Part shown: in pieces, positions 1 to 59,682 of the stretch
Layout of the letters: every line of letters begins with the position of its first letter
Numbering within the stretch: position 1 is the first letter of the stretch
Assembly (NCBI GenBank): GCA_003556605.1
Contig: PWQX01000086.1
Location: forward strand, 21,023-85,022
Origin: Spirochaetaceae bacterium
GTDB lineage: Bacteria > Spirochaetota > Spirochaetia > DSM-27196 > SLAA01
Direction: 5' to 3'
Length of the DNA stretch: 64,000 nt
Translations under genes and position numbers: made by a program
The notes under the pieces: generated by a model
Told to the model about the DNA's origin: nothing
The model's input: only the letters and a program-made list of their open reading frames with translations
The model's database searches: none

Positions 1-392
1 TTTTGGAGCTGATCAAGGTCTCAGGGGTAGGCCCCAAGCAGGCGATTCGTATTCTGTCGGGCACCAGTATAGACAGTTTCGTAGCGATGATGGAGGCAGG
101 CAACCTCGATGGGCTGTCAACTATCCCCGGTCTCGGGAAAAAGACGGCGCAGAAGATCGTACTCGCGCTGCAGGGTAAGTTGGTCAGCGCTGCGGGCGGC
201 GGGAAAGAGGGTCCGGCCGAACCCGGCGGCGCCGACGCCGAGCTGGTGACGGCGCTGTGCGAGATGGGCTTCGACCGCAAGGCTGCTCGTGAGGCGATCG
301 AGCACGCGCTGGGTGAGCTGGAAAAGCAGGGCGTTCACCCCGCCGAGCGCGAGCAGGAAGCCTTTCGGCGCGCGATCATTGCGCTGAGCTGA
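1..392 (+). CDS. ruvA: Holliday junction branch-migration protein RuvA, C-terminal part (5' end lies outside the window)
   Basis: Two HhH motifs (VSGVGPKQAIRIL; IPGLGKKTAQKIVL) and a domain-III-like C-terminus (ELVTALCEMGFDRKAAREAIE). Directly upstream of ruvB. The ORF runs to the window edge. Confidence 0.9.
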   Translation, partial: LELIKVSGVGPKQAIRILSGTSIDSFVAMMEAGNLDGLSTIPGLGKKTAQKIVLALQGKLVSAAGGGKEGPAEPGGADAELVTALCEMGFDRKAAREAIEHALGELEKQGVHPAEREQEAFRRAIIALS

Positions 393-413: not shown

Positions 414-1565
414 GTGTACAAGCATATGAGTAACGACGACGATCGTGACCAGTTCTCGCAAGACGAGATTCCGCCGGATACCGCTTCCCCGGCCGACAGT
501 GAGCTTCTGCGTGGGGAGGAAGGAAGCGACGACGTCCATGAAACGCGTCTGCGCCCGTCGCGCTTACGCGAGTTCCAGGGCCAAACCGAAATCAAGCGCA
601 ATCTCGAGGTGTTCATTCAGGCGGCGCGCGAGCGCGGTGACAGTCTGGACCACGTATTCTTCAACGGTCCGCCCGGGCTCGGGAAAACGACGCTTGCCGG
701 GATCATGGCGCATGAGCTGAACGCCGAGTTCAAGGTAACCGCCGCCCCGGCGCTCGAAAAACCGAAGGACCTTGCAGGTATACTCACCACCGTGCCGCGT
801 AACACTGTGTTCTTCATCGATGAGATCCACCGCCTGCGTCCCGCTATCGAGGAGATGCTGTACATCGCGATGGAGGATTTCGAAATCGACTGGGTGATCG
901 GGCAAGGGCCGTCGGCGCGCACCATTCGCATCCCGATTTCGCCGTTTACATTAGTGGGTGCGACGACCAAGGCCGGGCTCATCTCCGGCCCCTTGTACAG
1001 CCGGTTCGGGATCACGATACGGCTTTAGTTCTACAGCGCCGAGGAGCTCGGACAAGTGTTGCAGCGCTCGGCCGATATTCTTGAAGTGTCGGTTGAGCCC
1101 GAGGCGGTGCGCCTGCTCGCGCACAGCGCTCGCGGAACCCCGCGTGTGGCCAACCGCTTGCTTCGCAGGGTACGCGACTTCGCGCAGATTCTGGGCGACG
1201 GAACTATCACCGCCGCCATCGTTGAGGAAAGCCTCACGCGCTTGCAGATTGACCGCTACGGTCTCGAACGACACGACCGCCGCATCCTCAACACTATTAT
1301 CACAAACTACGGCGGCGGTCCGGTGGGTGCCGAAACGCTCGCAATCTCGATCGGCGAAGCGATCGACACGCTGGAAGACTTCTACGAGCCGTACCTTATT
1401 CAAAGCGGGTTTCTGCAGCGCACCCCGCGCGGGCGAGTCTGTACGCCGCTTGCGTACACGCATCTCGGTCTGCCGGCGCCGCAACCGGGGACAAACGGCG
1501 GCGGCACACGGGATCCGCAACTAAGACAGCCAGGATCGCATGAAGACCAAGGATTTCTTTTTTGA
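414..1565 (+). pseudogene. ruvB: Holliday junction DNA helicase RuvB, interrupted by one in-frame TAG at 1026-1028
   Basis: ORFs 414-1028 and 1056-1565 share a frame. Walker [10 protein letters not shown], Walker B FIDEIH, sensor region [19 protein letters not shown] and RGTPRVANRLLRRVRDF are all present. The junction reads RL*FY where E. coli RuvB has RLEFY. N-terminal start is uncertain. Confidence 0.85.
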
Positions 1566-2559
1566 GCTTCCCGAGCGCTTGATTGCGCAGCACCCGGTCC
1601 AACGCCGCGAGGATGCACGGTTATTGATGATGTCGCGGGTCAACGGCGGGCTGCAGGACCGCGTAGTGACCGAACTGCCGGATCTCTTGCCACCGCGCTC
1701 ACTGGTGGTGCTTAACGACAGCCGCGTCGAGCCGGTACGGCTGCGGGGACGAAAGCTCGCGGGCGGCGGCGCGGTGGAGGTGTTGCTCGTTGAGCCGTTC
1801 ACCGGCCGGCGCTGCCGCGCGATGCTGCAGCGCGCCCGGCGGTTACAGCCGGGCGCACGGCTCGAGCTGCCCGGGCGAGTCGTTGCTACCGTGGTCGCGA
1901 AAGACCCACCGTTCGTAGAGCTCGAGTTCACGTGTGACCTTGACATCGCGTATCTGCGGCGCTTTGGTTCGGTGCCGCTTCCGCCCTATATTCGGCGCGG
2001 CCCCGTTGCCGAGGACCGCAGGCGTTACCAGACGGTGTATGCGGCGGTGTCCGGCTCGGCAGCTGCCCCTACCGCCGGACTTCACTTCTCTCCTGAGTTG
2101 CTGCGCCGCCTGCGCGGAGGTGGTCACGACATCGCGTTCGTCACGTTGCACGTCGGCCCGGCCACGTTTCTCCCGGTGCGCAGCGAGCGTGTGGAGGACC
2201 ACCAAATGCACCGCGAACGCTACTCGATTCCGTCACCTACCGCAGCGGCGCTTGCCACTGCGCGTTCGGAGGGCCGCCCGGTAGTTGCGGTGGGCACCAC
2301 CACGGTGCGGACCCTTGAGTCCGCCGCCCGGGCCGATGGGCTGAAGGCCGGCAGCGGCGAGACCGATTTGTTTATCTATCCGGGGTTCGTGTTTCAAGTG
2401 GTCAACGCGCTCTTCACCAACTTGCACACCTCCGAGTCGAGTTTGATGATGCTGGTGGCAGCCTTCGCAGGATACGAGAACGTGATGGCTGCCTACCGCT
2501 ACGCGGTGGAGCAGGGGTATCGGTTCTTCTCGTATGGTGACGCGATGTTGATCAAGTAG
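1540..2559 (+). CDS. queA: S-adenosylmethionine:tRNA ribosyltransferase-isomerase
   Basis: Typical QueA N-terminus (DFFFELPERLIAQHP), central GSAAAPTAGLHF, C-terminal GTTTVRTLES and FFSYGDAMLI. 339 aa, the expected length. Confidence 0.95.
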   Translation: MKTKDFFFELPERLIAQHPVQRREDARLLMMSRVNGGLQDRVVTELPDLLPPRSLVVLNDSRVEPVRLRGRKLAGGGAVEVLLVEPFTGRRCRAMLQRARRLQPGARLELPGRVVATVVAKDPPFVELEFTCDLDIAYLRRFGSVPLPPYIRRGPVAEDRRRYQTVYAAVSGSAAAPTAGLHFSPELLRRLRGGGHDIAFVTLHVGPATFLPVRSERVEDHQMHRERYSIPSPTAAALATARSEGRPVVAVGTTTVRTLESAARADGLKAGSGETDLFIYPGFVFQVVNALFTNLHTSESSLMMLVAAFAGYENVMAAYRYAVEQGYRFFSYGDAMLIK

Positions 2560-3878: not shown

Positions 3879-6800
3879 GTGTATAGGAGACTGTTGCTTC
3901 TTTTCATGAGCACTGTACGTATTCGACCGAATATCATAGCTCTGGCCATCCTTTTAATTACGGTTGCCGTCGTCGTTAGCCCGGTTCATTCCTTTATGAG
4001 CGCACGACTTACGGAGTTGAAGGCCGATGCGCTCGATCAATTAGAGGCTGAGCTCGGGCGCAGGGTGAGCTACGACCGCATCTCTCCGTCGATTTTTCGG
4101 CGCCTCGATATTCGCGGCCTGCGAGTGCACGGCGCGGAGGCAGATAGCGAGGTTCTACTCGCCGTTTCGCGGGTGCGAGTGTACTATAGTTTGGCTGATC
4201 TGATAAGCAACCGTGAGCGCAATCCGCTACGGCGCATAAGTATTGAGAATACACGTTTTCGCTATGATTCGGATGCCGATCGTGAGCTGTATGAGCTGGT
4301 TCGCGAACTCGCCGAAGCACGTGAGGGTCGCCGTACGCGCGAGTCGGAGTTCTCAATCGTTGGACGAAACCTGTCCTTAGAGCTCGTTCACGAAGGCCGC
4401 GAATACCGGCTGGACGACTTCTTTTTCGACGCGAGCCTCGCCGGTAGCGCTCGTTTGCGCGCGCACGCGCGGGTCAGTCTCTCGGAGCTCGGTGCGCCGT
4501 TCGGCCGCGCAGGCATTGGCCCGGCGACCGCACAAGTCGCGATCAGCGGACGTATAGATGAGGATTTCAATCTCGCCGACGTCACACTCGAGCTCCCACA
4601 TTTTGAAACCGAGTTCTTCGCGCTCCAAGACCAGGCTTTTGCGGTGAGTTTGGGTGAGCGCAAGATCGTGGCGCGTAAGCTCCAGGACCGGGAGCCGGTG
4701 GACATTACCTTGAGTTATAACCTCGAATCAGGGGAGGTGGCCGGGAGCTTTCTTGCGCAGGACTATCGCCCGGCAGATTCACTACGCCTGCACGGTGCGG
4801 CAGGGGAATACGACGGCTGGATGCAAACCGTAGTCTCGGGCGAAGGGCGCTTGAGCTGGCAGCACGACGGTGACCTCGATTACCGCGTCGCGATGCAGGC
4901 TGAGCTTCCATCCGAGGCCGAGCGCCTGCGCGTGTCGGCGGTGCTGCGGGGCAACCGCAAGCGCGTGGACTTCGATCACGTTATAGCGCTGTCGGAAACC
5001 GGTTCGGCCGGCTTCGACGGCTATGTAACGCTGCGGGATAACACTCCCAACGGCGATCTAGTCTTGAACGAGTTCAGTTACGGAGGTTCCCAGCGGGTCA
5101 CCGGGCGTGTGGCGTTGTCCGGCGGCGACGGATTGTATCAACTCAGCTCACGGCATGTGGACTACGGCGGGTTTGAGTTCTTCAACCTCCGCGCCGAGAT
5201 CAGGCAGCGCAACGGCGGTTTGGGTTTTGAGGCTTCAAGCGACCTTGAGTTCTTGGGCGAAAGCGCGGTCGCGGCCGCCGGTGTGGTGAAACTCGGCGAG
5301 CGGCCGAACGTCTCGGTCGATGTGGACGTGCGCAACGTGCCGCTCGAGCGACCATACGCAGCCTGGCAAGCGCTCAGCGGCGGTACCCAAGCGCCGCTTG
5401 CGCCTGCAGGTCTCGAGCGCTACATCCTAGACTCGCAGATTACGATCGATGTGGACGACGCGACGGTTCAGGTCAGCGCTCCGACTGTATCACTGTACGA
5501 CCGCGAGAACCGCGACAACTTTGCCACATTCACAGTACAAAGCGTAGGCGCCGACTATCACGTTGAGAATATCGTGGTCGGTATCGGCGAACGCCGGGGC
5601 CGTGGCGCGTTAACCGCACGAGTAGACCGGCGCAATCGGCTTCGATTTGAAAGCGAGGTTGAGTTCGAGGGAATCGCGTACGAGCTTGCCGGGCTGTTTG
5701 ACCCTGCGGGGCGACTGGTGGCCGAAGGCTCCTACGGACTAGACCTGAACGCGTCGTTTGGTGCGGGTCGCAATGTGGTCTTTGCCCTGGAACTCGATGA
5801 CTTTCCGTTTCCGGCCGGTACGCGCCGGATGATCGCGAGTGTTAGTCTCAACGGAGTGCTGGTAGGCGTCGACCAATGGGAACTACGCGTTCGCCGCGCT
5901 CGCCTTGCGCAACTGCCGTTTCTCTCCGATGACACGGTTGCGATTGAGTTCACCGGACGCTTCGAACCTTCAGGTGCACAGGTGCAAGATATTGTGTACG
6001 AGGATCGCTTCTCGCGTCTCTCGGGAAGCGGAGACCTCCAGTACGACCTTGCCGCGCCGCTTAACATGGACGCGGTGTTTGCAGTGGCGAGTGACACCGG
6101 AGAGGAGCGCTACGAGGTAAGCTTTGAGCTCAGTGAAGACAGGCTCGAAGGGCGCGCGCTGGTAACCAACGCGTCGCTACGCCGCCTCGGCGCCCAGCCT
6201 ATTCGCGGTGGCCTGGACGGCGAGTTCGTACTATCGGGTACGCTTGCGTCCCCGCAATTTGACGGGCGCTTCGAGTCGGTTGAAGCGCGTTTCAATAACG
6301 ACCCTTTTCAAGCCCGCGGTGAGCTTATCTATCGCGAAGGAACCGTTGGGGTCCGTGATATCAGTGTCAGGTATCTCTCTAACGAGCTCACCGACGTGGA
6401 AGGCAGCCTCGATCTCGAAAGCGGCGCACTGGTGCTGAACAGCCGTTTCGAGCAGTTCGGCCGGCCCGATGCTATAGAAGTTACCGCCGCACTGCGCGGC
6501 GAGTTCAGCCCTCGGGAAGAACGGGCGCTGCGGTTCGGAGACCTCACCGAGCGCGACGTGTTTGCCGAGCTCACGGTGTTTTCCGAAGCGCTTGCGGAGT
6601 CCGGGGGACGCTGGGATTTTCAGATCACGCGTAACGAAGGGCAGAGCGCGGTCAGAGGCGGACCCGAGGACGCGATCAACGCGTTCATGGACGATGACGG
6701 CTCGTTCCGCCTGCGTTTGAGCGACCCACTGCCGGTGACGCTTACGGCGCAGGGCACCTACGAAGACGGCGCGGTCGAAGCCGACCTCACCCGCATCATG

Positions 6801-8213
6801 GTCAATGCCGACCGCATGCAGGACCTGTTGAGCTTCCGCCGGTTCGCAATACGCGGGGGGCAGGTGAGCGGCAGCCTGCGCGTGGTAGGTCCGATTAATG
6901 ACCCCGACTTCTTCGGCACGCTCAGCGCCGAGAATGCGCGCGTGTGGGTCGATTACGTCGCCGACGAAATCACCGCTGAGCAGTTCTACGTAGTGTTGCA
7001 GGAAAAGGTAGTTTCGATTAATCCGTTCCTCGCGAGAGCGGGTCGCGGAGAGGTGGATGCCCAAGGACAGGTGCTGCTTGGACGCTGGACGCCTGAAGAG
7101 TACGAGTTTGAGTTCCGCACGCTCGACGAGTACGGTGTTAACATTGCGCATACCTTTGATTCTCTGACCATAGACGGCTTCGGCACCGGGATCTTCACGA
7201 TATCGGGCACCATGCAGCTGACTACCCTCGGGGGGAGTATTACCGCCCGCTCGACGACTATAACGCTCGGGCTCCCGTCCGAGCCGAAGCCACGGAGAGG
7301 TGATCACGACGTGACCGTCGACCTGGAGATTACCTCGGGACGTGGGGTAGAGTTTTATTGGCCGACCCGGAGCTTCCCGATCCTGAGGAGTTTTGCGCGG
7401 GTCGGCGAGACGATTGATTTTGAACACTCAAACGTAGACCGCAGCTTTGCGTTACGCGGGGATGTGGGCATACAGGGTGGTGAGATCTTTTATTTCGATC
7501 GCAGTTTCTACATCAGGGAGGGGCGAATCTCGTTCGACGAGACGCAGGATCAGTTTGATCCGCGCCTCTCCGCGCGCGCTGAGATCCGCGAGATCTCCGA
7601 CCGCGGACCGGTGACCCTGTATTTGGTAGCTGATGACACGCGCTTGAGTGAGTTTACCCCGCGCTTTGAGTCGGACCCGTTGCTGAGCGAGCAAGAGATC
7701 GCCGAGCTGCTCGGTGGCCAGGTTTTCACTCAGACAGCCGGCGATATCGCCGCGCTGTCATCGGCGGTGCTGTTGACCGGGGATGTAGTAACCCAGTTTG
7801 GGGTGATGCGTACCTTTGAGAGCCGGGTGCGGCAGTTCCTGCGGCTCGACCTACTATCGGTGCGAACGCCGGTGTTGCAGAACTTGGTTCGGGGAGCGGT
7901 CACCGAAGAAGAGGCAGAGCAGCCTATTGACACTACCGGGCCATCTCTTGGAGAGTACTTCGATAACACGTCGGTATTTCTGGGCAAGTATCTCGGAACC
8001 GATCTGTTTCTTGAGTTGCTTGTCAGAATTCAGGCATCCGACCGTCGCGATCCGGAGGCTCGGGACTTGGGTGGAGTATCGGTTGATTCGGAGTTGACGC
8101 TGGAGTTTCAAACTCCGTTCTTCAATCTGGACTGGAACTTCTTCCCGCAGAATCCGCAGGATCTTTTTGTGACGGACAACACCTTCACGTTTTCTTGGGG
8201 GTTTTCGTATTAG
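3879..8213 (+). CDS. tamB: TamB-like translocation and assembly module protein (DUF490 family)
   Basis: 1444 aa. N-terminal membrane anchor (IIALAILLITVAVVV), long beta-rich body, C-terminus ending in an aromatic residue (FTFSWGFSY). Immediately upstream of bamA, as in other spirochaetes. Start is uncertain: GTG 3879, TTG 3894 just downstream of AGGAGA, or ATG 3906. Confidence 0.8.
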   Translation: MYRRLLLLFMSTVRIRPNIIALAILLITVAVVVSPVHSFMSARLTELKADALDQLEAELGRRVSYDRISPSIFRRLDIRGLRVHGAEADSEVLLAVSRVRVYYSLADLISNRERNPLRRISIENTRFRYDSDADRELYELVRELAEAREGRRTRESEFSIVGRNLSLELVHEGREYRLDDFFFDASLAGSARLRAHARVSLSELGAPFGRAGIGPATAQVAISGRIDEDFNLADVTLELPHFETEFFALQDQAFAVSLGERKIVARKLQDREPVDITLSYNLESGEVAGSFLAQDYRPADSLRLHGAAGEYDGWMQTVVSGEGRLSWQHDGDLDYRVAMQAELPSEAERLRVSAVLRGNRKRVDFDHVIALSETGSAGFDGYVTLRDNTPNGDLVLNEFSYGGSQRVTGRVALSGGDGLYQLSSRHVDYGGFEFFNLRAEIRQRNGGLGFEASSDLEFLGESAVAAAGVVKLGERPNVSVDVDVRNVPLERPYAAWQALSGGTQAPLAPAGLERYILDSQITIDVDDATVQVSAPTVSLYDRENRDNFATFTVQSVGADYHVENIVVGIGERRGRGALTARVDRRNRLRFESEVEFEGIAYELAGLFDPAGRLVAEGSYGLDLNASFGAGRNVVFALELDDFPFPAGTRRMIASVSLNGVLVGVDQWELRVRRARLAQLPFLSDDTVAIEFTGRFEPSGAQVQDIVYEDRFSRLSGSGDLQYDLAAPLNMDAVFAVASDTGEERYEVSFELSEDRLEGRALVTNASLRRLGAQPIRGGLDGEFVLSGTLASPQFDGRFESVEARFNNDPFQARGELIYREGTVGVRDISVRYLSNELTDVEGSLDLESGALVLNSRFEQFGRPDAIEVTAALRGEFSPREERALRFGDLTERDVFAELTVFSEALAESGGRWDFQITRNEGQSAVRGGPEDAINAFMDDDGSFRLRLSDPLPVTLTAQGTYEDGAVEADLTRIMVNADRMQDLLSFRRFAIRGGQVSGSLRVVGPINDPDFFGTLSAENARVWVDYVADEITAEQFYVVLQEKVVSINPFLARAGRGEVDAQGQVLLGRWTPEEYEFEFRTLDEYGVNIAHTFDSLTIDGFGTGIFTISGTMQLTTLGGSITARSTTITLGLPSEPKPRRGDHDVTVDLEITSGRGVEFYWPTRSFPILRSFARVGETIDFEHSNVDRSFALRGDVGIQGGEIFYFDRSFYIREGRISFDETQDQFDPRLSARAEIREISDRGPVTLYLVADDTRLSEFTPRFESDPLLSEQEIAELLGGQVFTQTAGDIAALSSAVLLTGDVVTQFGVMRTFESRVRQFLRLDLLSVRTPVLQNLVRGAVTEEEAEQPIDTTGPSLGEYFDNTSVFLGKYLGTDLFLELLVRIQASDRRDPEARDLGGVSVDSELTLEFQTPFFNLDWNFFPQNPQDLFVTDNTFTFSWGFSY

Positions 8214-14858: not shown

Positions 14859-15961
14859 GGCACGGTGGACATCAGTTTCAAGTCCTCGACCACTGTAGTC
14901 TGTTCATTGAGAAAACGCAGTACACGGTCGATTGGGTTTTTCCGGAACAAATGGCTGAAGACCTCCTCACTGAGCTCTCCGCGGCGGTATAGTATCTGCA
15001 GGAGCATTGAGTCGAGCAGCCGATAGCGGCGCGGCGCGCGCGGCAGCGCGAAAGGGTGTCCGTGACGCTCGAGCGATGTGACGATTGCCGCCGTGTCGTT
15101 CTGTATGCGATGAAACGCGAAGCCGCTCGATGCCTTGACGCGGCCGCCTTTCGTCCCGGTGTAGAGAATATGCCGCCCGCCGCGCCGCGCAAACGGCTGA
15201 TCGGTCATCGGGATAATGCCGTGTTCTTCCTCTTGAACGCGGTAGCTATGTATACCGAGTACCTCCTCGATGTAGGCGCGCAACTCACGCTCGTATTCCT
15301 CAGCCGTAAGTATGTCAGCTGAGAACAGCGTATACTCCACCAACGCCCGCCGCTTGGAAAAAGGCAGAATATAGATAAACCGCATCACGCCGTGCTGGGG
15401 TACGCGGAAATCGAAAAACCGAATCGCCTCAGGGTCAAAGCAATCAACGTCGGTCTCAATTACCCAGCCTTTGAAGTGTTGCTTGATGAAATGGTAGCGC
15501 GTAGTATCGACGTGAAACTGCTCAGGAATGATGAGACTATCGAACAGATAGCTCCCGCTGAGGGTCTTGCCGTCTACGATGACCTCGGCCCCCTCGGAAG
15601 TATCGCGCGTTTCCTCAACGAATCCCTCCAAGAAAGTAACGTTAGGGGTGCGTTCAATCACATCGTGCATGTACTGGTAGAACTCTAAGCCCGGGATCAT
15701 GCAATACTGATACGGGGCAAGGTGGTAGCGCTCGCGATGCTGTGCGCTCAGAAACTCCATGATGTTCCAGCGATGCCGAACCACCGGGTCAAACACAAAC
15801 TCGCGGTCGGTCCAGAAACACCAGGTGCGGTCGTTGCTGCGTTTGGGGTCTTTGTCGATGATCACGATTGAGCGGTCGCGCAAGCTGCTTTGCAGGAGCT
15901 GATAGGCCAAACTCAGACCGGCTGCGCCGCCCCCTGCTATCAAATAGTCATATTGCTCCAT
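14807..15961 (-). CDS. lycopene cyclase family protein (CrtY/CrtL type)
   Basis: N-terminal FAD-binding fold YDYLIAGGGAAGLSLA, DRTWCFW motif, C-terminal RFLNE motif. 384 aa, typical of PF05834 cyclases. Confidence 0.8.
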   Translation of the reverse strand: MEQYDYLIAGGGAAGLSLAYQLLQSSLRDRSIVIIDKDPKRSNDRTWCFWTDREFVFDPVVRHRWNIMEFLSAQHRERYHLAPYQYCMIPGLEFYQYMHDVIERTPNVTFLEGFVEETRDTSEGAEVIVDGKTLSGSYLFDSLIIPEQFHVDTTRYHFIKQHFKGWVIETDVDCFDPEAIRFFDFRVPQHGVMRFIYILPFSKRRALVEYTLFSADILTAEEYERELRAYIEEVLGIHSYRVQEEEHGIIPMTDQPFARRGGRHILYTGTKGGRVKASSGFAFHRIQNDTAAIVTSLERHGHPFALPRAPRRYRLLDSMLLQILYRRGELSEEVFSHLFRKNPIDRVLRFLNEQTTVVEDLKLMSTVPWIPFIRAFFRLKVVGP

Positions 15962-16031
15962 AACCCTTTTAGTATACGCCTAGCCGCAAAATACGGTCAA
16001 ACAGAAGCGTCGTGAAAATCAAGACAGTGTA

Positions 16032-17009
16032 TTGATAGCGGAGTGTAACAAAATGCGTCTTAGCACTATCAAGCCGCTCTCGATCCGAGAACTGCTGTAC
16101 AGCTTCGCTGACCTGCTCGCCCCAAAGCCGTGCATTCTGTGTGGTGCCGTGCTCTCCCGCCTCCGCGCGTGGTGTGACGAGGGCGGGAGGCAGAACCCGC
16201 CATCGCCCCCGATTCCGCTTGCCCCAGACACCGCGCTCGCCATCTCGACATCGAACGAGTTGCTCACTATCGGAGCCGGCGCGGGGGTATGCCCACGCTG
16301 TGTGGACGAGCTTTGTACTGCAGCAAACTTCGCCCGCATGGACTTCGGCCGAACCGAGCTCACCGGGAGTGTCGCGGTGTCATCTCAGCCGGGCCGGTCA
16401 GCGCGGCCGGCAGAGAGCAGTTACAGCAGCCGGAGCGGGTGCACCCGCTGCAGCCGCGCGCTGATCTCGGAGCTCGAGCTGTGCAGCACGTGCCGCAACA
16501 CCGACCCGGCTTTCGCTCGTGCACACGCGCTGTTTGAGTATCGCGGGGCCGCACGCAAACTGCTGTGGTTCTACAAGTTCGAGAATCGAAAGGCGCTCGC
16601 ACCGCTGTTTGCGGCGCTGCTGTACTCAGCCTATTCGGTACAGTTTGCGCCCGCGCCGATTGTACCAATTCCCGGTCAGAAGCGCGCGCGGGCAGCTCGG
16701 GGCTGGGACCAGATGGAGGTTCTCGCGCGCATCCTGCGCCGCCGCTACGGGGTTCAGGTACTTGGTGCGCTACGCCGGAGTTCAACCGGTACCGCTCAGA
16801 AGAGCTTGGGCCGCACGGAGCGGCTGAAGCACGCCGCCGGGCACTACCAGTTAGCGGGGCTGGCGCGCAACCTGAAGCTTGAGCACCACCCGCGCGTGGT
16901 ATTGCTTGACGACGTACTCACCACGGGTGCAACCGCCTCAGCGTGCTCCGGCCTGTTACACCAAGCCGGCGTGCCCGAGGTACAGGTCCTAACGCTCACC
17001 ATCCGGTAG
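16032..17009 (+). CDS. comF: ComF family protein (phosphoribosyltransferase domain)
   Basis: Several CxxC pairs in the N-terminal half (CILC, CPRC, CTRC, CSTC). C-terminal PRTase signature VVLLDDVLTTGATASA. Confidence 0.8.
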   Translation: MIAECNKMRLSTIKPLSIRELLYSFADLLAPKPCILCGAVLSRLRAWCDEGGRQNPPSPPIPLAPDTALAISTSNELLTIGAGAGVCPRCVDELCTAANFARMDFGRTELTGSVAVSSQPGRSARPAESSYSSRSGCTRCSRALISELELCSTCRNTDPAFARAHALFEYRGAARKLLWFYKFENRKALAPLFAALLYSAYSVQFAPAPIVPIPGQKRARAARGWDQMEVLARILRRRYGVQVLGALRRSSTGTAQKSLGRTERLKHAAGHYQLAGLARNLKLEHHPRVVLLDDVLTTGATASACSGLLHQAGVPEVQVLTLTIR

Positions 17010-33958: not shown

Positions 33959-36661
33959 TTAGAACTCGGCGGGCTCTACGGCCTCCACCACGTAATCGTA
34001 TTCACGCTCGTTGATCTCAAATTTTAGGTGATCGCCGGGAGCTCGATTATAGAGCTTGCTTCCGAGCGGCGAGAGATACGAGATAACCGAGTTCTCCGGG
34101 TCAGACTCCCACGGGCCGAGGATGGTATAAGTTTCGGCCGCGCCGGTGCGGTTGTTCTGCAACTGCACCCGCGTGCCGAACGATACCGTCTCGGTCTTCA
34201 CCTCGTCGGGGCGCATGACCTCGGCGGTCTCAAGCTCTTCCTTGAGGCGCGCCGCGGTGGAGTTCAGAAAATCCTGACGCTCTTTGGCCGCCTTGTATTC
34301 GGCGTTTTCCTTCAGGTCACCGAGTCCCAACGCTGCGTTGATTTCTTTCGAGTTCTCAGGGACCTCAACCTCCTGAATGCGTTGTAGTTGTTTCTGCTTG
34401 TTTTCAAATGAGCGCGGGGTGGTAATAAACCCACGGCTGACGGTCTCCGCCTCTTGTTCGCCGTAAAACTTGAACTTCGGGAAACGATCAAGGATCTGCT
34501 GCTTGAGCTCAATACGAATAGAGGGATCTAGATCTTTAACGTCGCTGATAAGGGTGTAAATCCTCGTGATTGACATCTCTTCCGCATCGGCAATGAACTG
34601 CGACACGTTGCGGTCTTTGAACAAGAAGCCGTGAATCTGTCGATTGAGCTTGCGGTTGTACGTGGTATCACGCTTGTTGTCGATGTCACGATAGGTGATG
34701 TCCAGCAGGTGGATCATACTGATCAAAACCTTCTCAAACGGCATCTCCAGTTCTTGGAACCACTTGTCTTGATAGCAGTTGCGAACCAGCCAGATATACG
34801 GTTCACGTTGGTCGCGGTAGTTGGAGTGCAGCCGGTGAAACAGCTCCTGCAGCTTGTCGGTGCGTTCGGCACGTTCGAGCTCGGTGATGATTTCGCGGGT
34901 GAGGGCGTAGGGAAACAGCTGCACGAAGCGATCCGGCCAGTCGGAGACCTGCCGGCGCAGGTGCTGCAGAAACTCTTTGCGCAAATCGGCGTTTTCAATC
35001 CACCGGAACACCTCTTCCAAATCCGAGATTTGCTCATAGTGCGGCAAGAACTCGAGGTCGAGGTCCCCCGGATGTAAGAAGGGGTAGCGCGCTATGATAC
35101 GACGAACGAGCAGAAGACTCGAGATCGTATACTCGTTGACTGTCGTGACGTTGCGTAAAGACCCCACGAAGTAATCGAACATCTCGCGGAAGAATTGACT
35201 GTCGGTCCCCTCGATGCCGCCATCTTCGATGTAGTCGAGAAACTCATCGATCGTCTTGACGCGGTCAAAGAAATTCTTTTCGGCTTTAAACTTGTTGAAC
35301 GTCTTTTCCTCAAAGGTGATCGGCTGTTCTCGCACCATATAGTGGTCGAGCTTGTCAGTGAGATTACCGAACTCCTGGTTGGTCTTGAGCTCGTTGCGCG
35401 CCTTCGCGCTCCATGCGGTCCATTCGTTGGGGGTGAGAATCGACGGAACCAGCTCGGCCTTGATCCGCTTGATATCGGCCGCATTGCCGCAGCTCTTGAC
35501 CACGGTGCGTAACGCCCACACTACGTCGCCTTTTACTTTCTTGCGGAGTTTCTCCTTCTTCCAAATGCTTTTCAGAACCCACAGATGGTTTCTCTCGAGA
35601 ATATCGAGCGAGCTCACCGCCATCTTCAGCGACATGGTGTGTCCGCGTCTACGCGCAAAATCGACAACGACAGAGTCGTCGTCAATTGAGCGGATAATCC
35701 CAACACCCCAAGCGCGATGATGCACGAAGTTCCCCGCGTCGAACGAGATGTGCTTCTCAAAGTCGGCTATGGCGTCATGGATATTGCGCCAGGTCTGATT
35801 GAGGTTCGAGAGCTTAATATACTCCTCGAGGTGGCTGTGATCCGCATACTTGGCACGGTAGCACTCCACAATTTCGTTACGGGCGAACGCGTTTTTCGGT
35901 TCGTAATGGAGAATACGCTTCAACAGCTCAATCGCGGTGTCCCAGCGTTGATTGTTCTTGAAGTAGGGATAGAGCTCTTCCAGCAGTTGCGAAGCGCGTT
36001 CCGGACTGATGCTCTTTGCAATCTTGCTTTCGGCGTGGTAGAAGAACTCGGTCTCCTCGGGAGCATACTGAATAAGTTTGTGCCACACCTCGCGCAAGTT
36101 GTTAAACGCCTTCTTGTTGATATAACGGTGCAGGGCCTTCTTGTAATAGTCGACTGCCTCCTCAAGCTCACCGAATTCTTCCTTGCGCTCAGCGAGGCGC
36201 CGGACAATGTCAGCTTCATCGAAATCAACGCGAATCAACCGCTCCCAGACGGCATACATATTGTCGAGTTGATTCTCGTTGTTGTAACAATCGGCGAGCG
36301 TTCGCAGTGCGGCCTTGTTTTCGCCGAACTCAAGAATCCGGTTCGCCAGGTACGCGACGATGTTCCATTTGTGGTTGTCGGCGAATATATTGATCAGTGC
36401 CACCAAGTTAGTGTCGTTAACCGTCTGCCGGGAGATGTGTAGGACTCCGGAGATGTAAAGCGCGATGATGCTGTTCTTCGTGTGCTGCAGATGTTCCTCG
36501 CACTCGGCCAAGACGTCGTCTTGGCGACCTTCTGCGAAAACCTGCTCGAGTACATTGTCGAGTTCTTTGAAGTTGTTGACGGTATAGTTGTTCAGCGTTG
36601 CTCTCGTCCATTTCTCTTCATTCAGCAGCCCGCTGATATCGGTTAGAGCCTGCTCAGCCAT
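33959..36661 (-). CDS. greA: long-form transcription elongation factor GreA (spirochaete type, ~740-aa N-terminal extension)
   Basis: The C-terminal ~150 aa are GreA-like (LKENAEYKAAKERQDFL...VSFGTRVQL...TYTILGPWESDP...ISYLSPLGSKL). The total of 900 aa matches the ~900-aa GreA I recall from Borrelia. Confidence 0.85.
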   Translation of the reverse strand: MAEQALTDISGLLNEEKWTRATLNNYTVNNFKELDNVLEQVFAEGRQDDVLAECEEHLQHTKNSIIALYISGVLHISRQTVNDTNLVALINIFADNHKWNIVAYLANRILEFGENKAALRTLADCYNNENQLDNMYAVWERLIRVDFDEADIVRRLAERKEEFGELEEAVDYYKKALHRYINKKAFNNLREVWHKLIQYAPEETEFFYHAESKIAKSISPERASQLLEELYPYFKNNQRWDTAIELLKRILHYEPKNAFARNEIVECYRAKYADHSHLEEYIKLSNLNQTWRNIHDAIADFEKHISFDAGNFVHHRAWGVGIIRSIDDDSVVVDFARRRGHTMSLKMAVSSLDILERNHLWVLKSIWKKEKLRKKVKGDVVWALRTVVKSCGNAADIKRIKAELVPSILTPNEWTAWSAKARNELKTNQEFGNLTDKLDHYMVREQPITFEEKTFNKFKAEKNFFDRVKTIDEFLDYIEDGGIEGTDSQFFREMFDYFVGSLRNVTTVNEYTISSLLLVRRIIARYPFLHPGDLDLEFLPHYEQISDLEEVFRWIENADLRKEFLQHLRRQVSDWPDRFVQLFPYALTREIITELERAERTDKLQELFHRLHSNYRDQREPYIWLVRNCYQDKWFQELEMPFEKVLISMIHLLDITYRDIDNKRDTTYNRKLNRQIHGFLFKDRNVSQFIADAEEMSITRIYTLISDVKDLDPSIRIELKQQILDRFPKFKFYGEQEAETVSRGFITTPRSFENKQKQLQRIQEVEVPENSKEINAALGLGDLKENAEYKAAKERQDFLNSTAARLKEELETAEVMRPDEVKTETVSFGTRVQLQNNRTGAAETYTILGPWESDPENSVISYLSPLGSKLYNRAPGDHLKFEINEREYDYVVEAVEPAEF

Positions 36662-43554: not shown

Positions 43555-44631
43555 ATGGCGAAAAAGGAACAGGTCTCCGCTCCTGGTAACCAAGAGGAGC
43601 GCAATCGTGCACTTGAGGCTGCTCGCCTCAATATCGAGAAGCAGTATGGCAAGGGCTCGCTCATGAAGATGAGCGAGGGGCGCCAGATACAGAATATTTC
43701 GGTAATCCCGAGCGGCTCGATCCTGCTCGACGAGGCGTTGGGACTCGGAGGCTACCCCAAAGGGCGCGTTGTCGAGGTCTACGGCCCCGAGTCTTCCGGT
43801 AAAACCACTTTAGCGCTGCATGCTATTGCCGAAGCGCAGAAGCAGGGAGGTATTGCGGCGTTCATCGATGCCGAACACGCCCTTGACCCGGTATACGCCG
43901 GGCACTTGGGCGTCAATATCGATGAGTTGTGGGTCTCGCAACCCGACACCGGCGAGCAAGCGCTGGAGATTGCCGAATCACTGGTGCGATCGGGCGCAGT
44001 AGACATCATTGTCATCGATTCGGTGGCTGCGCTTACGCCACAAGCCGAGATCGAAGGCGAAATGGGTGATTCTCATGTAGGCTTGCAGGCGCGACTCATG
44101 AGTCAGGCGCTTCGTAAGCTTACCGGTACCCTGCACAAGTCCGGCACTTGCATGATCTTCATCAACCAGATCCGCATGAAGATCGGCGTAATGTTTGGAA
44201 ACCCTGAAACCACCACCGGCGGAAAGGCCTTGAAGTTCTACTCATCGGTACGTTGTGAGGTGCGCCGTATAGAGACAATCTCAAAAGGCGCCGACGAGGC
44301 AATCGGCAACCGGGTACGCGTAAAGATCGCCAAGAACAAGGTAGCGCCCCCGTTTCGCAAGGTCGAGCTTGAGTTGATGTTCGGTACCGGTCTCTCGGCG
44401 TCCGGCAGTTTGCTCGATGCCGCGGTGAAGTACAACATTTTTCAAAAAAGCGGCAGCTGGTACTCATACGGCGAGGAGCGTATAGGGCAGGGTCGTGACA
44501 ACGTGAAGCAGTTTCTCGAGAACAACCCCGAGATCGCGGCACAGGTTGACGCGGAACTGCGAAAACTGATGTTTCCGGCCGTCGAGCCGGGAGAGCCTGA
44601 GCAATCAGGCGATGAAGGCGATGAGCACTGA
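43555..44631 (+). CDS. recA: recombinase RecA
   Basis: Walker [33 protein letters not shown], acidic C-terminus. 358 aa to TGA 44629-44631. Confidence 0.98.
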
Positions 44632-44844
44632 GGCGCCGAGCCGAAGACTAAGCAGAGCCCGAAATCAGGCGCCCGCAAGAAGCCGTCTGCCGTGACAGGG
44701 ACAAGCACAGGTGCTACCGCACAAACCGGCTCGAGCTCCGGTGTCTCCGCCTCCAATACCTCTAACGCCGCCGCGTCACCCGATCCCGAGCCCGCTTCGG
44801 TTGCTGAGCCGAAGCCAGAGCCGGCCGAGGATGAGCTGTTCTGA
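44632..44844 (+). other. 70 sense codons in frame with recA after its TGA, ending AEDELF-TGA (possible lost or read-through C-terminal extension)
   Basis: My own translation gives GAEPKTKQSPKSGARKKPSAVTGTSTGATAQTGSSSGVSASNTSNAAASPDPEPASVAEPKPEPAEDELF*. Third codon positions are mostly G/C, as in the flanking genes. Confidence 0.35.
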
Positions 44845-47426: not shown

Positions 47427-48064
47427 TTGTAGCTATCGACGGGCCTGCCGGCAGTGGAAAAAGCGCGATCGCTCGCATGGTCGGTGAAAACACCGGCTTC
47501 ACGTATATCAATTCCGGGCTGTTCTACCGCGCGCTCACGCGCAAGGTCCTGGACTCCGGGTGCGATCCAAGCAGACGCGAGCAAGTACTGCCGATCGTCG
47601 CAGACACTGAACTGCGGTGGCGCGATGGCAGACTGTATCTCGACGGCAAACCCGTCCCGGCAGCCTCCCTGCGTACCGACGAGGTTGACAGTCACGTAGC
47701 GCAGCTTTCTTCGTTCCCCGAGCTGAGGCAGTTAGTCAACACTGCGCTGCGCAGCTCGGCGCGGGACCAGGATAGTGTTGTTGAGGGACGTGACATTACT
47801 ACGGTGGTGTTTCCCGACGCCGAGGTCAAGATCTACCTCGATGCGAGTATTGAAGCACGGGCGGAGCGGCGGTACAAAGAAAACACCAGTGGCTTGAGTC
47901 TAGACGCGCTGAAAGCCGCGATTGCCGAGCGCGACCAACGCGACCGTGACAAACAACAGGGCAGCCTCCAGCTGAGCGAGGACGCGGTCCATTTGGATAC
48001 CTCGGACTTGACCATCAATACAGTTTATGAGACAGTTATGGAAATAATTCAATCGAAACGTTAA
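47423..48064 (+). CDS. cmk: cytidylate kinase
   Basis: MIVAIDGPAGSGKSAIAR. ATGA overlap with rluB. The ORF was trimmed from 47330. Confidence 0.93.
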   Translation: MIVAIDGPAGSGKSAIARMVGENTGFTYINSGLFYRALTRKVLDSGCDPSRREQVLPIVADTELRWRDGRLYLDGKPVPAASLRTDEVDSHVAQLSSFPELRQLVNTALRSSARDQDSVVEGRDITTVVFPDAEVKIYLDASIEARAERRYKENTSGLSLDALKAAIAERDQRDRDKQQGSLQLSEDAVHLDTSDLTINTVYETVMEIIQSKR

Positions 48065-49834: not shown

Positions 49835-51340
49835 ATGGTTAAGACGAACATCGATCCGCAGAAGTTTGAAACCTTCATTGAGATCAACACCTTAATCAAT
49901 TCGTACTACGCAGATCCGCGTGCCCTCCTGCAGCGCATTCTCGAGTCCGCCACTCGCTTGACCGCTGCCGAGGCCTCTTCATTGCTGCTCTTGAAGCCCG
50001 AGACCGGCATGCTGCACTTTGAGATCGCGCTCGGCTCAAAAGGTGCCGAGGTTAAGCAGTTCAGCCTCAAGCGCGGCGAAGGCATTGCCGGCTGGGTTGC
50101 AGAACACAACCGCTCGCTCATCGTTAACGACGTTGCCCAGGATCCGCGTTTCCAGTCCGAAATCAGCACCAGCATTCAGTTCGAAACGCATGCCATACTT
50201 GCGGTGCCCATGCGGATTCAAGACCGCTGCGTGGGCGTGCTCGAAATGGTGAATAAGCGGGGGAGGGGAGTTTTCACCGCCGAGGACCAGCACTGGCTGG
50301 AAATATTCGCGACCCAGGCGGGGTTAGCCATTCAAAACGCCAAGTCGTTCCAGGCGGTGCGTGACCAGATTGACGTTCTCAGAGACCAGATGAACGGTGC
50401 GCAAGGCTATCACACAATGATCGCCGAAAGCCGCCTGATGCAAGAGAAACTCGAGTTAGTTGCGCGCATCGCCGAAACCGATTCCTCGGTGCTGATTCTC
50501 GGTGAGAGTGGCGTCGGCAAGGAATTGATTGCGGAACAGATCCACAAACGCAGCGCGCGCCGCAACGGCCCATTGGTGCGCGTCAACTGCGCGGCGCTTC
50601 CGGAACCATTGTTGGAGAGCGAGTTGTTCGGGCATGTAAAAGGTGCGTTTACCGATGCCGACCGTGACCGAACCGGTCGATTTGAGCTGGCCGACGGCGG
50701 AACGATCTTCCTAGATGAGATCGGCGACCTTCCGCCTGCCTTGCAAGCGAAAATGCTGCGCGTCATTCAAGATCGCACTTTCGAACGAGTGGGCTCCAGC
50801 ACGCCGGTGCGCGTCAACGTGCGCATACTGGCCGCCACCAACAAGGATATTGCGCGCGCGGTGGACGAGGGCTGGTTCCGCAGCGACCTGTACTATCGAT
50901 TGAACGTCTTGCCGCTTGAGGTGCCGCCGCTGCGCCGCAGGCGCGAAGATATCCCGGTGCTGGCCGAGTTCTTTCTCAAACGAGTCAACCAAGAGACCAA
51001 GAAACAGGTGCAAGGCTTTACCGACGAAGCCATGGAGACGTTGTTGTCGTATTCATGGCCGGGTAACGTCCGCGAGCTCGAGAACGTGGTAGAGCGCGCC
51101 GTTGTAATTTGCGAAAAGAGCTATATCAGTCCGGCTGAGCTCTCGCTTGATCACGGACGAACCGGCCGTGACCAACAGTACGAGGACAAGTCGCTGAAGG
51201 AATCGGTAACACTGTTCAAGAAGCATTTTATCCGCAACGCGCTCGAACGACACGGCTGGCATCAGACCGAAACCGCCAAAGCGCTCGGTATTCAACGAAC
51301 CTACCTATCTCGTCTAATCAAAGAGCTTGAGATAAAGTAG
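49835..51340 (+). CDS. sigma-54-dependent transcriptional activator (GAF - AAA+ - HTH)
   Basis: N-terminal GAF-like domain. AAA+ Walker A GESGVGKE, the GAFTGA-type loop [15 protein letters not shown], Walker [10 protein letters not shown], and a C-terminal Fis-type HTH ([18 protein letters not shown]). Confidence 0.9.
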
Positions 51341-56288: not shown

Positions 56289-56798
56289 TTACACGAACCC
56301 CCCGCGCTCCGGCTCAGCCAAGGGCGGCACTAACCGCAGCAGTGCAAACGCCGGTGGCGCCAAGAGCGAGTTATACGCCAGCTCAATCGCGAAGCGTCCG
56401 CTCAGTACACCGGAAAATGCCAATTCAATTCGAAAGACCGCTATCAGAAGCGAGGCAAGCAGTCCTTGGGTGAGCGTTGCGACCAATACTAGTAGGATCG
56501 GCAGCAAAATAGGATCAAGAAACATCTTTTCCTGCGTTTTCCCGGCGACATACCCGATGATCGTCTTGCTAAACGCGTGGAATCCCAATGGCGATAGGCT
56601 CAGAAAATCCTGGGTGATACCGGCAGCAAATCCGCCGAGCTCACCGGCAAAGCTTCCCTTCTTGTTGGCCAGGAACACCACCACGATGAGCGCGATGTCA
56701 GGAACCACCCCGGCGATCGCGATGCCGCGCAGAATATTGCTCTGCAGCAGCGCGAAACCCACCGCTATGATCGTAGCATACACCAAAGCAACCGACAT
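56289..56798 (-). CDS. mreD: rod shape-determining protein MreD
   Basis: 169-aa polytopic membrane protein between mreC and mrdA. Confidence 0.8.
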   Translation of the reverse strand: MSVALVYATIIAVGFALLQSNILRGIAIAGVVPDIALIVVVFLANKKGSFAGELGGFAAGITQDFLSLSPLGFHAFSKTIIGYVAGKTQEKMFLDPILLPILLVLVATLTQGLLASLLIAVFRIELAFSGVLSGRFAIELAYNSLLAPPAFALLRLVPPLAEPERGGFV

Positions 56799-58722: not shown

Positions 58723-59262
58723 CTAGTTGTTCTGTAGGCTCTGCAGCGCCCCAGCGTGCTGTGGGTCCAGCCGAACCGCCTCGCGCCATTGAGCCCGCGC
58801 CCGTTCGCGATCGTCTTGAACCATATGCAACTCACCCAGCAGGTAATACGCATGTGCCGCGTCCTCGTTCGACGCCAACACGTCCTCCACCTTTTCGCGA
58901 GCTTCCTGGTACCGCTTTCCCGCAATCAGCACTTCAGCTAGGCGCAGTTGGGATTGCTGAATAAGATAGCTGTCATCGCTTACCGACAGAACGCGCTGGA
59001 AAGCGTATTCGGCATCAGAAAGCCTTTCAAGCTCCATCTGCGTCTCACCGAGGGTGAAATACAGCAGATCGTTTGGGTTCTCGACTACTGCAGCCTGCAA
59101 GCTTTCTGCGGCTTGCGAATAATCACCGCTCGCTGCGTAAGCTACTGCCAGATACTCGTGCGCATCGGCGGCATGGTACCCGTGTTCTAAAGCCCGGCTC
59201 ATGTACTCAACCGAAAGGTCGTAATAGAACGGACCGGTGTGAAAATATGCCTTGCTCAGCAC
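58723..59262 (-). CDS. TPR protein (C-terminal half of a possibly split gene)
   Basis: 179 aa with a GTG start. TPR units (HEYLAVAYAASGDYSQAAESLQAA; AHAYYLLGELHMVQDDRERARAQWREAVRLDP). Starts immediately after, and in frame with, the TAA of the upstream ORF. Confidence 0.6.
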   Translation of the reverse strand: MLSKAYFHTGPFYYDLSVEYMSRALEHGYHAADAHEYLAVAYAASGDYSQAAESLQAAVVENPNDLLYFTLGETQMELERLSDAEYAFQRVLSVSDDSYLIQQSQLRLAEVLIAGKRYQEAREKVEDVLASNEDAAHAYYLLGELHMVQDDRERARAQWREAVRLDPQHAGALQSLQNN

Positions 59263-59682
59263 TTAGTACAGCTCTCCACGCAGCTCGTCGCTGTCATGCA
59301 GAAGCGCCTTTCGAAGTTCTCGAATTGCGCCCTGCATATAAACGCGACGGTGCTCTTCGTCAACCTGTTCTAGCCCGGCGTAGAACTGTCCGAATCCCGA
59401 GTATATTAACGCCGTACGGTCCATTGGATTCTCAGCGAGTCGCGTTTCAGTCTCGGCAATAAGGTCTTGGTATCTCTCTTCAGACCATAGTTCAGCTAAC
59501 TCGGCGCGTCCGGCAGCGCGCACCACGTTGTAAAAAAACCGGTGCCCACCGAACAGCACAAACGCCAGCACCGACAAGAATACCACAGATGCTAAAATAC
59601 TTCCGGCTATCATGCGAGCAGATGGCTCTTGTCGTGTCTTCCCACGGGAAGCAAAGTTGAAGCGCGCTCTGGGGTATCTCAT
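59263..59682 (-). CDS. membrane-anchored TPR-like protein (N-terminal half of a possibly split gene)
   Basis: TM helix IAGSILASVVFLSVLAFVLF followed by helical repeats. Ends at TAA 59263-59265. ATG 59682 is preferred over the TTG 59718 given in the ORF track. Confidence 0.55.
   Translation of the reverse strand: MRYPRARFNFASRGKTRQEPSARMIAGSILASVVFLSVLAFVLFGGHRFFYNVVRAAGRAELAELWSEERYQDLIAETETRLAENPMDRTALIYSGFGQFYAGLEQVDEEHRRVYMQGAIRELRKALLHDSDELRGELY

Follow-up and report, generated by a model that had tools for sequence, protein, structure and literature searches.

An in-frame TAG private to one metagenome-assembled contig interrupts the ruvB gene of an uncultured soda-lake spirochaete

What does a single in-frame stop codon stand for when it interrupts a housekeeping gene that is otherwise perfectly conserved? 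The question is raised by the ruvB gene near the beginning of a 64-kb stretch of metagenome-assembled DNA (the window, 57.5% G+C), in which two open reading frames at 414-1028 and 1056-1565 share one frame and are separated by a TAG at 1026-1028. A preliminary description of the locus, made from the sequence alone, reported this arrangement correctly, including the peptide GITIRL*FYSAEEL across the break. It proposed that the event is very recent, a base-call or assembly error, or tolerated by read-through.

The features of the locus and two comparable changes elsewhere in the window are compiled in Table 1. The ruvB frame can start at GTG 414 or ATG 426 and terminates with TGA at 1563-1565. 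The start at 414 given in the preliminary description has to be revised, the likely start being ATG 426, from which all four available contigs of the same species call a protein of 379 amino acids. With the TAG read as glutamate, the joined frame scores 467.4 bits against the NCBIfam RuvB equivalog model NF000868 (cutoff 282; model positions 12-328 of 330), whereas the two halves taken separately reach 254 and 193.5 bits and thus both fall below the cutoff. Pfam divides the Glu-restored protein into RuvB_N (residues 42-200, with the model used in full, 1-159 of 159), AAA_lid_4 (203-276) and RuvB_C (278-347). The stop at residue 201 is therefore located in the linker of two residues that joins the P-loop domain to the lid domain. 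Upstream, the ruvA part present in the window matches positions 76-198 of 202 in the TIGR00084 ruvA profile (93.8 bits); in the contigs of the same species RuvA comprises 202 amino acids and is preceded by ruvC and a YebC-family gene. The preliminary remark that ruvA looks intact can extend to its last 129 codons only, as the gene is cut off by the beginning of the window. Downstream, QueA matches NF001140 over positions 1-339 with 409.8 bits, and its protein is identical in the four contigs, in agreement with the earlier statement that queA is intact.

Table 1. Coordinates of the ruvB locus and of two further private in-frame stops in the window
Feature	Position	Strand	Remarks
ruvA, 3' part	3..392	+	last 129 codons; gene cut by window start
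Complete ruvB reading frame, one interruption	426..1565	+	379 codons plus stop; colinear with NF000868
N-terminal ORF, 200 aa, up to the premature stop; contains the whole P-loop ATPase domain	426..1028	+	Pfam RuvB_N
Premature TAG, ruvB codon 201	1026..1028	+	T at base 1026, where every conspecific assembly has G
SD-like GAGGAG (1041-1046) and, 9 nt later, GTG 1056; possible accidental restart	1041..1058	+	direct sequence reading
C-terminal ORF, 169 aa, lid minus its first 8 residues plus winged-helix domain	1056..1565	+	
queA, intact	1540..2559	+	start overlaps last 26 nt of ruvB; ends in TAG
Second private nonsense change, recA codon 359, TCA to TGA (S359*)	44629..44631	+	sister contig comparison
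Third private nonsense change, TPR gene codon 117, TAC to TAA (Y117*)	59263..59265	-	sister contig comparison

The match to characterized RuvB proteins (NF000868/TIGR00635) is full and colinear over all three domains, the motifs are present including the SRFG arginine finger and RGTPRVANRLLRRVRDF, and the neighbourhood ruvC-ruvA-ruvB-queA is kept. The Glu-restored protein aligns without gaps to the solved structures from Pseudomonas aeruginosa (7x7q, 6blb), Thermotoga maritima (1in4) and Thermus thermophilus (1hqc), and the stop corresponds to the E of RLEFY in the P. aeruginosa protein. The difference is that a TAG stands in place of the acidic or amide residue that comes after the final strand of the P-loop domain, and the gene as written encodes only residues 1-200. 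Since this TAG denies the gene a single uninterrupted CDS, the window carries ruvB with a nonsense allele rather than a demonstrably functional RuvB.

Four sister contigs were collected through exact matches to the QueA protein: one from a JGI soda-lake sediment metagenome, two from NCBI metagenome-assembled genomes (MAGs; GCA_003552375.1 and GCA_003562055.1) and one Logan contig from SRR490155. The sister assemblies originate from Siberian soda-lake sediment. Over 2.6-6.6 kb the contigs share 99.1-99.7% nucleotide identity with the window, and on this ground they are taken to be the same species from different strains or samples. All four contain the gene order yebC-ruvC-ruvA-ruvB-queA with an intact RuvB of 379 amino acids, and in the alignment base 1026 is G, giving GAG, in every one of them. 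Four further sites in ruvB vary between the window and the sisters, all of them synonymous, so codon 201 is the only difference from the RuvB of the species at the amino-acid level; the Glu-restored protein is exactly the one recorded from the sister contigs. The earlier claims that one GAG to TAG change explains the break and that no other lesion is present are thereby borne out. The sister sequences had also been named as a check for an assembly or sequencing error. They do carry GAG, which does not prove such an error, as it fits a mutation private to one strain equally well.

A wider comparison covered representatives of 80 GTDB species with 62-81% identity, for the most part uncultured members of the Spirochaetales living in soda and saline lakes. 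Across these and the four conspecific loci (84 in total) the residue at the site of the stop is D in 35, E in 24, N in 19, G in four, and Q and S in one each. The glutamate regarded as conserved in the preliminary description is thus constant within the species, but D, E and N alternate across the order and the position is not strictly conserved. Neither a stop nor a gene end was found at codon 201 in any of the 84 loci, all of which run continuously through the site; naturally split, two-gene versions of RuvB and orthologues that end here, which had been raised as a way to refute the idea of a broken gene, are therefore absent from this set. The exact fragments of 200 and 169 amino acids are recorded from a single NCBI contig of 95,716 bp only, evidently the one from which the window was taken.

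Over positions 1-2600 the variants of the window are shared with two of the sister contigs (L001 and L003) up to about position 1370 and with another (L004) from about 1704 onward. As read from these variants, the switch of haplotype inside ruvB-queA points to either recombination between strains or a chimeric consensus.

The ruvB stop has company in the window. The recA gene (43555-44844) is read as an ORF of 358 amino acids, compared with a RecA of 429 amino acids in two sister contigs (L089 and L090). The lost tail comprises the C-terminal 71 residues, a low-complexity stretch rich in S, T, A and P and ending in AEDELF, and the RecA core is whole, with the Pfam domains RecA and RecA_C ending at residue 337. 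A gene for a TPR protein upstream of mreB (58723-59613, minus strand), which encodes 296 intact amino acids in two sister contigs (L093 and L094), is broken into fragments of 116 and 179 amino acids. The 358-residue RecA and the two TPR fragments are recorded only on the same 95,716-bp contig as the RuvB fragments, and the independent assemblies from JGI, Logan and ENA showed none of the three private stops. Two other regions were considered as split genes and rejected: the reading frames at 56289 (mreD/PBP2) and those that overlap at 45.4-48 kb (scpA, scpB, rluB and cmk) are ordinary adjacent genes.

In-frame stops occur in more than one MAG of the species, since a sister MAG (GCA_003566105.1, contig L093) has a nonsense change of its own, E387* (GAG to TAG), in a gene for a GAF/sigma-54 activator at 15459-16964 of that contig. 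The corresponding gene of the window is an intact ORF of 501 amino acids (49835-51340), in which the equivalent of E387* lies at position 50993.

To place the three stops among the other differences, changes private to the window were polarised at 47,940 positions, each covered by at least two other assemblies. This gave 42 private changes, of which 26 are synonymous, 12 non-synonymous, three nonsense and one intergenic. The density is not elevated (42 per 47.9 kb; the two sisters in which the most sequence could be polarised have 45-49 per 30-36 kb), and the majority are synonymous transitions; for these reasons the base calling on the contig looks generally sound. No indels that would testify to error were found between the window and the aligned sister contigs. 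Among protein-altering singletons, nonsense changes make up three of 15 in the window and none of 65 in the sisters (hypergeometric p of about 0.006, calculated by hand). Random single-base changes in the genes of the window are expected to yield about 4.7% nonsense, for which three in 15 corresponds to a binomial tail of about 0.03, likewise calculated by hand. Nonsense is thus modestly over-represented among the private changes. Chance, artefact and selection are all possible sources of this excess. Two of the three stops lie in genes of homologous recombination.

The types of substitution were examined as well. Of the three private stops, two arose by G:C-to-T:A changes and one by a C-to-G change; G:C-to-T:A is also the class with the highest nonsense yield in the genes of the window (8.4%). 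An unpolarised comparison gave nine protein-altering and no synonymous G:C-to-T:A differences (p = 8e-5). The burst of such changes specific to the window that this seemed to indicate was mostly dissolved when more sisters were used for polarisation, leaving three polarised singletons: the exact TruB and Pnp proteins of the window are also present in other assemblies, and several supposed G-to-T changes of the window turned out to be private to, or shared among, the sisters. What is left is a weak hint of a G:C-to-T:A excess. A mutator phenotype caused by mutS is unsupported; the two N-terminal differences (TPMMKQY/ARIK versus TPMMQQY/ARTK) are unpolarised and look conservative. Nine of the 12 polarised private amino-acid changes cluster at 4140-6514, in the N-terminal half of a TamB-like protein of 1,439 amino acids (gene at 3894-8213), which suggests a divergent and possibly recombined haplotype block, or fast evolution.

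Three known phenomena invite comparison. 'Internal stop' pseudogenes of draft genomes and MAGs show the same picture of a housekeeping gene that is perfect except for one nonsense substitution, seen in one assembly only, and with similar lesions nearby (recA and the TPR gene) and in a sister MAG, nothing distinguishes the ruvB of the window from them. 8-Oxoguanine leads to G-to-T changes that are either real mutations, as in mutY or mutM defects, or artefacts of library preparation. Two of the three stops agree with such damage, but the third is C-to-G and the polarised G:C-to-T:A singletons number only three. Programmed read-through or recoding, as for pyrrolysine at UAG or selenocysteine at UGA, likewise places an in-frame stop in a conserved gene, but here no relative has the stop, genes ordinarily terminate with TAG, and neither a recoding element nor a tRNA gene was seen in the window.

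Judged by these comparisons, the TAG in ruvB is a private single-base change that evolution has not yet filtered, either a real recent allele or a consensus error; both of these readings of the preliminary description stand. We consider a real and very young loss-of-function allele of the captured strain or sub-population to be the best account, with a probability of roughly 0.5. A substantial chance is left to the alternative that the organism has GAG and that T at 1026 is a consensus error of one metagenome assembly, for which a low-coverage stretch, damage-induced G-to-T changes or the retention of a minor-variant path during assembly are possible causes. Such an error would account for the absence of the TAG allele from all four independent assemblies and of its fragments from every other source, an absence that is necessary for an artefact and not sufficient for one. 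The two additional private nonsense changes within the same 64 kb, the excess of nonsense among the singletons and the one-sided unpolarised G:C-to-T:A differences speak for it too, oxidative damage in library preparation being a further source of this class of change. Against it, the total of private changes is not elevated and consists mostly of synonymous transitions, unlike random error, indels relative to the sisters are missing, the G:C-to-T:A signal shrank under better polarisation, and random damage should not be able to win the consensus at normal depth. The sister MAGs of the species were assembled with MEGAHIT from Illumina HiSeq reads (PMC6146748), and in an assembly of this type a one-off substitution error would be unlikely to prevail. 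Because the source contig is long (at 95.7 kb probably adequately covered), because its other private variants look biologically filtered, and because of the Illumina/MEGAHIT background of the sister MAGs, we lean slightly towards the real allele. The E387* change counts in the same direction, as it means that nonsense alleles occur elsewhere in the assembly set. On the other side, a free-living bacterium would be heavily burdened if its whole genome were affected at the rate of the window, with three nonsense changes in 64 kb (about three in 53 genes).

The remaining accounts are all less probable. A real stop might be tolerated, either by low-level read-through of UAG or by a restart at GTG 1056 that would give a RuvB in two pieces (1-200 and 211-379). 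The break falls exactly between RuvB_N and AAA_lid_4, an SD-like hexamer and a GTG follow 13-30 nt downstream of the stop, and the 169-residue ORF was called by a gene caller. We nevertheless regard this as improbable: none of the related loci has a split ruvB, and the restart product would be without the first eight residues of the lid. The bases of GAGGAG and GTG are identical in the intact sister alleles, where they are plain codons (E-E...V), which means that they did not arise as a start signal. Read-through, the third proposal of the preliminary description, is disfavoured because no relative shares the stop and genes of the window regularly end in TAG. It is also unlikely in view of the T that follows the TAG, a base that makes a strong termination context in E. 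coli. Folding of the RNA around and downstream of the stop gave no clear sign of unusual structure (-51.4 kcal/mol for positions 1000-1120; z = -1.78; equalled by six of 200 shuffles). A reassignment of TAG to sense, for pyrrolysine or otherwise, has next to no probability and was rejected. Only the in-frame TAG itself would favour it, whereas TAG terminates 14 of the 52 mapped genes of the window (TGA 25, TAA 13), among them queA and tmk at conserved ends, conspecifics encode Glu with GAG, tRNA genes are absent from the 64-kb window, and no single reassignment fits TGA and TAA, the two further in-frame stops. An old pseudogene in a lineage that is losing ruvB would also have a broken frame, but the absence of a second lesion excludes it: apart from the stop the protein has no amino-acid difference from the intact one of the species, and the gene is intact in four conspecifics and 80 related species. 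A lineage decaying at this gene is accordingly given a very slight chance. It is quite improbable, too, that all three private stops are real and linked, in a lineage with altered homologous recombination that combines a ruvB-null state or a two-piece RuvB with a RecA devoid of its tail. If this were true, selection would have favoured the alleles, or a general leakiness of termination would have made them tolerable, and the over-representation of nonsense among the private variants would be explained.

The preferred reading, a young loss-of-function allele, can be followed to its expected consequences. One G to T substitution at 1026 would have converted Glu201 from GAG to TAG in an otherwise perfectly conserved ruvB, and translation would end after residue 200. 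The product would be a P-loop fragment with Walker A and B, sensor 1 and the arginine finger, deprived of the lid (sensor 2, RGTPR) and of the winged-helix DNA-binding domain. With these parts missing, branch migration by RuvAB would be lost or crippled. Moreover, ribosomes would fall short of the end of ruvB, which overlaps the start of queA, so that the expression of queA may drop. By analogy to E. coli, a ruvB-null cell should be viable but repair-deficient; the allele would exist briefly and should not persist. Such a brief existence agrees with the finding that no other assembly or species has it.

The stop in ruvB is therefore an ordinary nonsense SNP, private to one metagenome-assembled contig, and neither conserved nor programmed nor novel. 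For biology it carries little weight, whether this uncultured soda-lake spirochaete has a private nonsense allele in a housekeeping gene or the assembly contains an error. With three in-frame stops in 64 kb, the gene and pathway calls of this MAG require caution: ruvB, recA and the TPR gene should not be counted as lost unless reads support it. Should the stops prove genuine, the strain would represent a natural variant deficient in ruvB, of modest interest for the persistence of repair-defective lineages in sediments.

Some minor observations were made in the course of the comparison. In the JGI contig (L089) a 1-bp deletion in a C run, at the position equivalent to window 47407, shifts the rluB and cmk calls to 258 and 195 amino acids, compared with 238 and 213 in the other assemblies; this looks like a lesion or an error of the JGI assembly and not of the window. 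Just after the stop of queA, at 2553-2600, there is an imperfect tandem duplication of the 3' end of queA (ATCAAGTAGCGCAG[C/G]TCAGCGG, twice), of which 21 bp are missing in one sister contig (L002). Finally, the minus strand at 33959-36661 encodes a protein of 900 amino acids with a C-terminal GreA/GreB domain in addition to the Pfam domains HTH_GRAD and GRAD_C; it is an unusually long member of the GreA family and is kept in all sister contigs.
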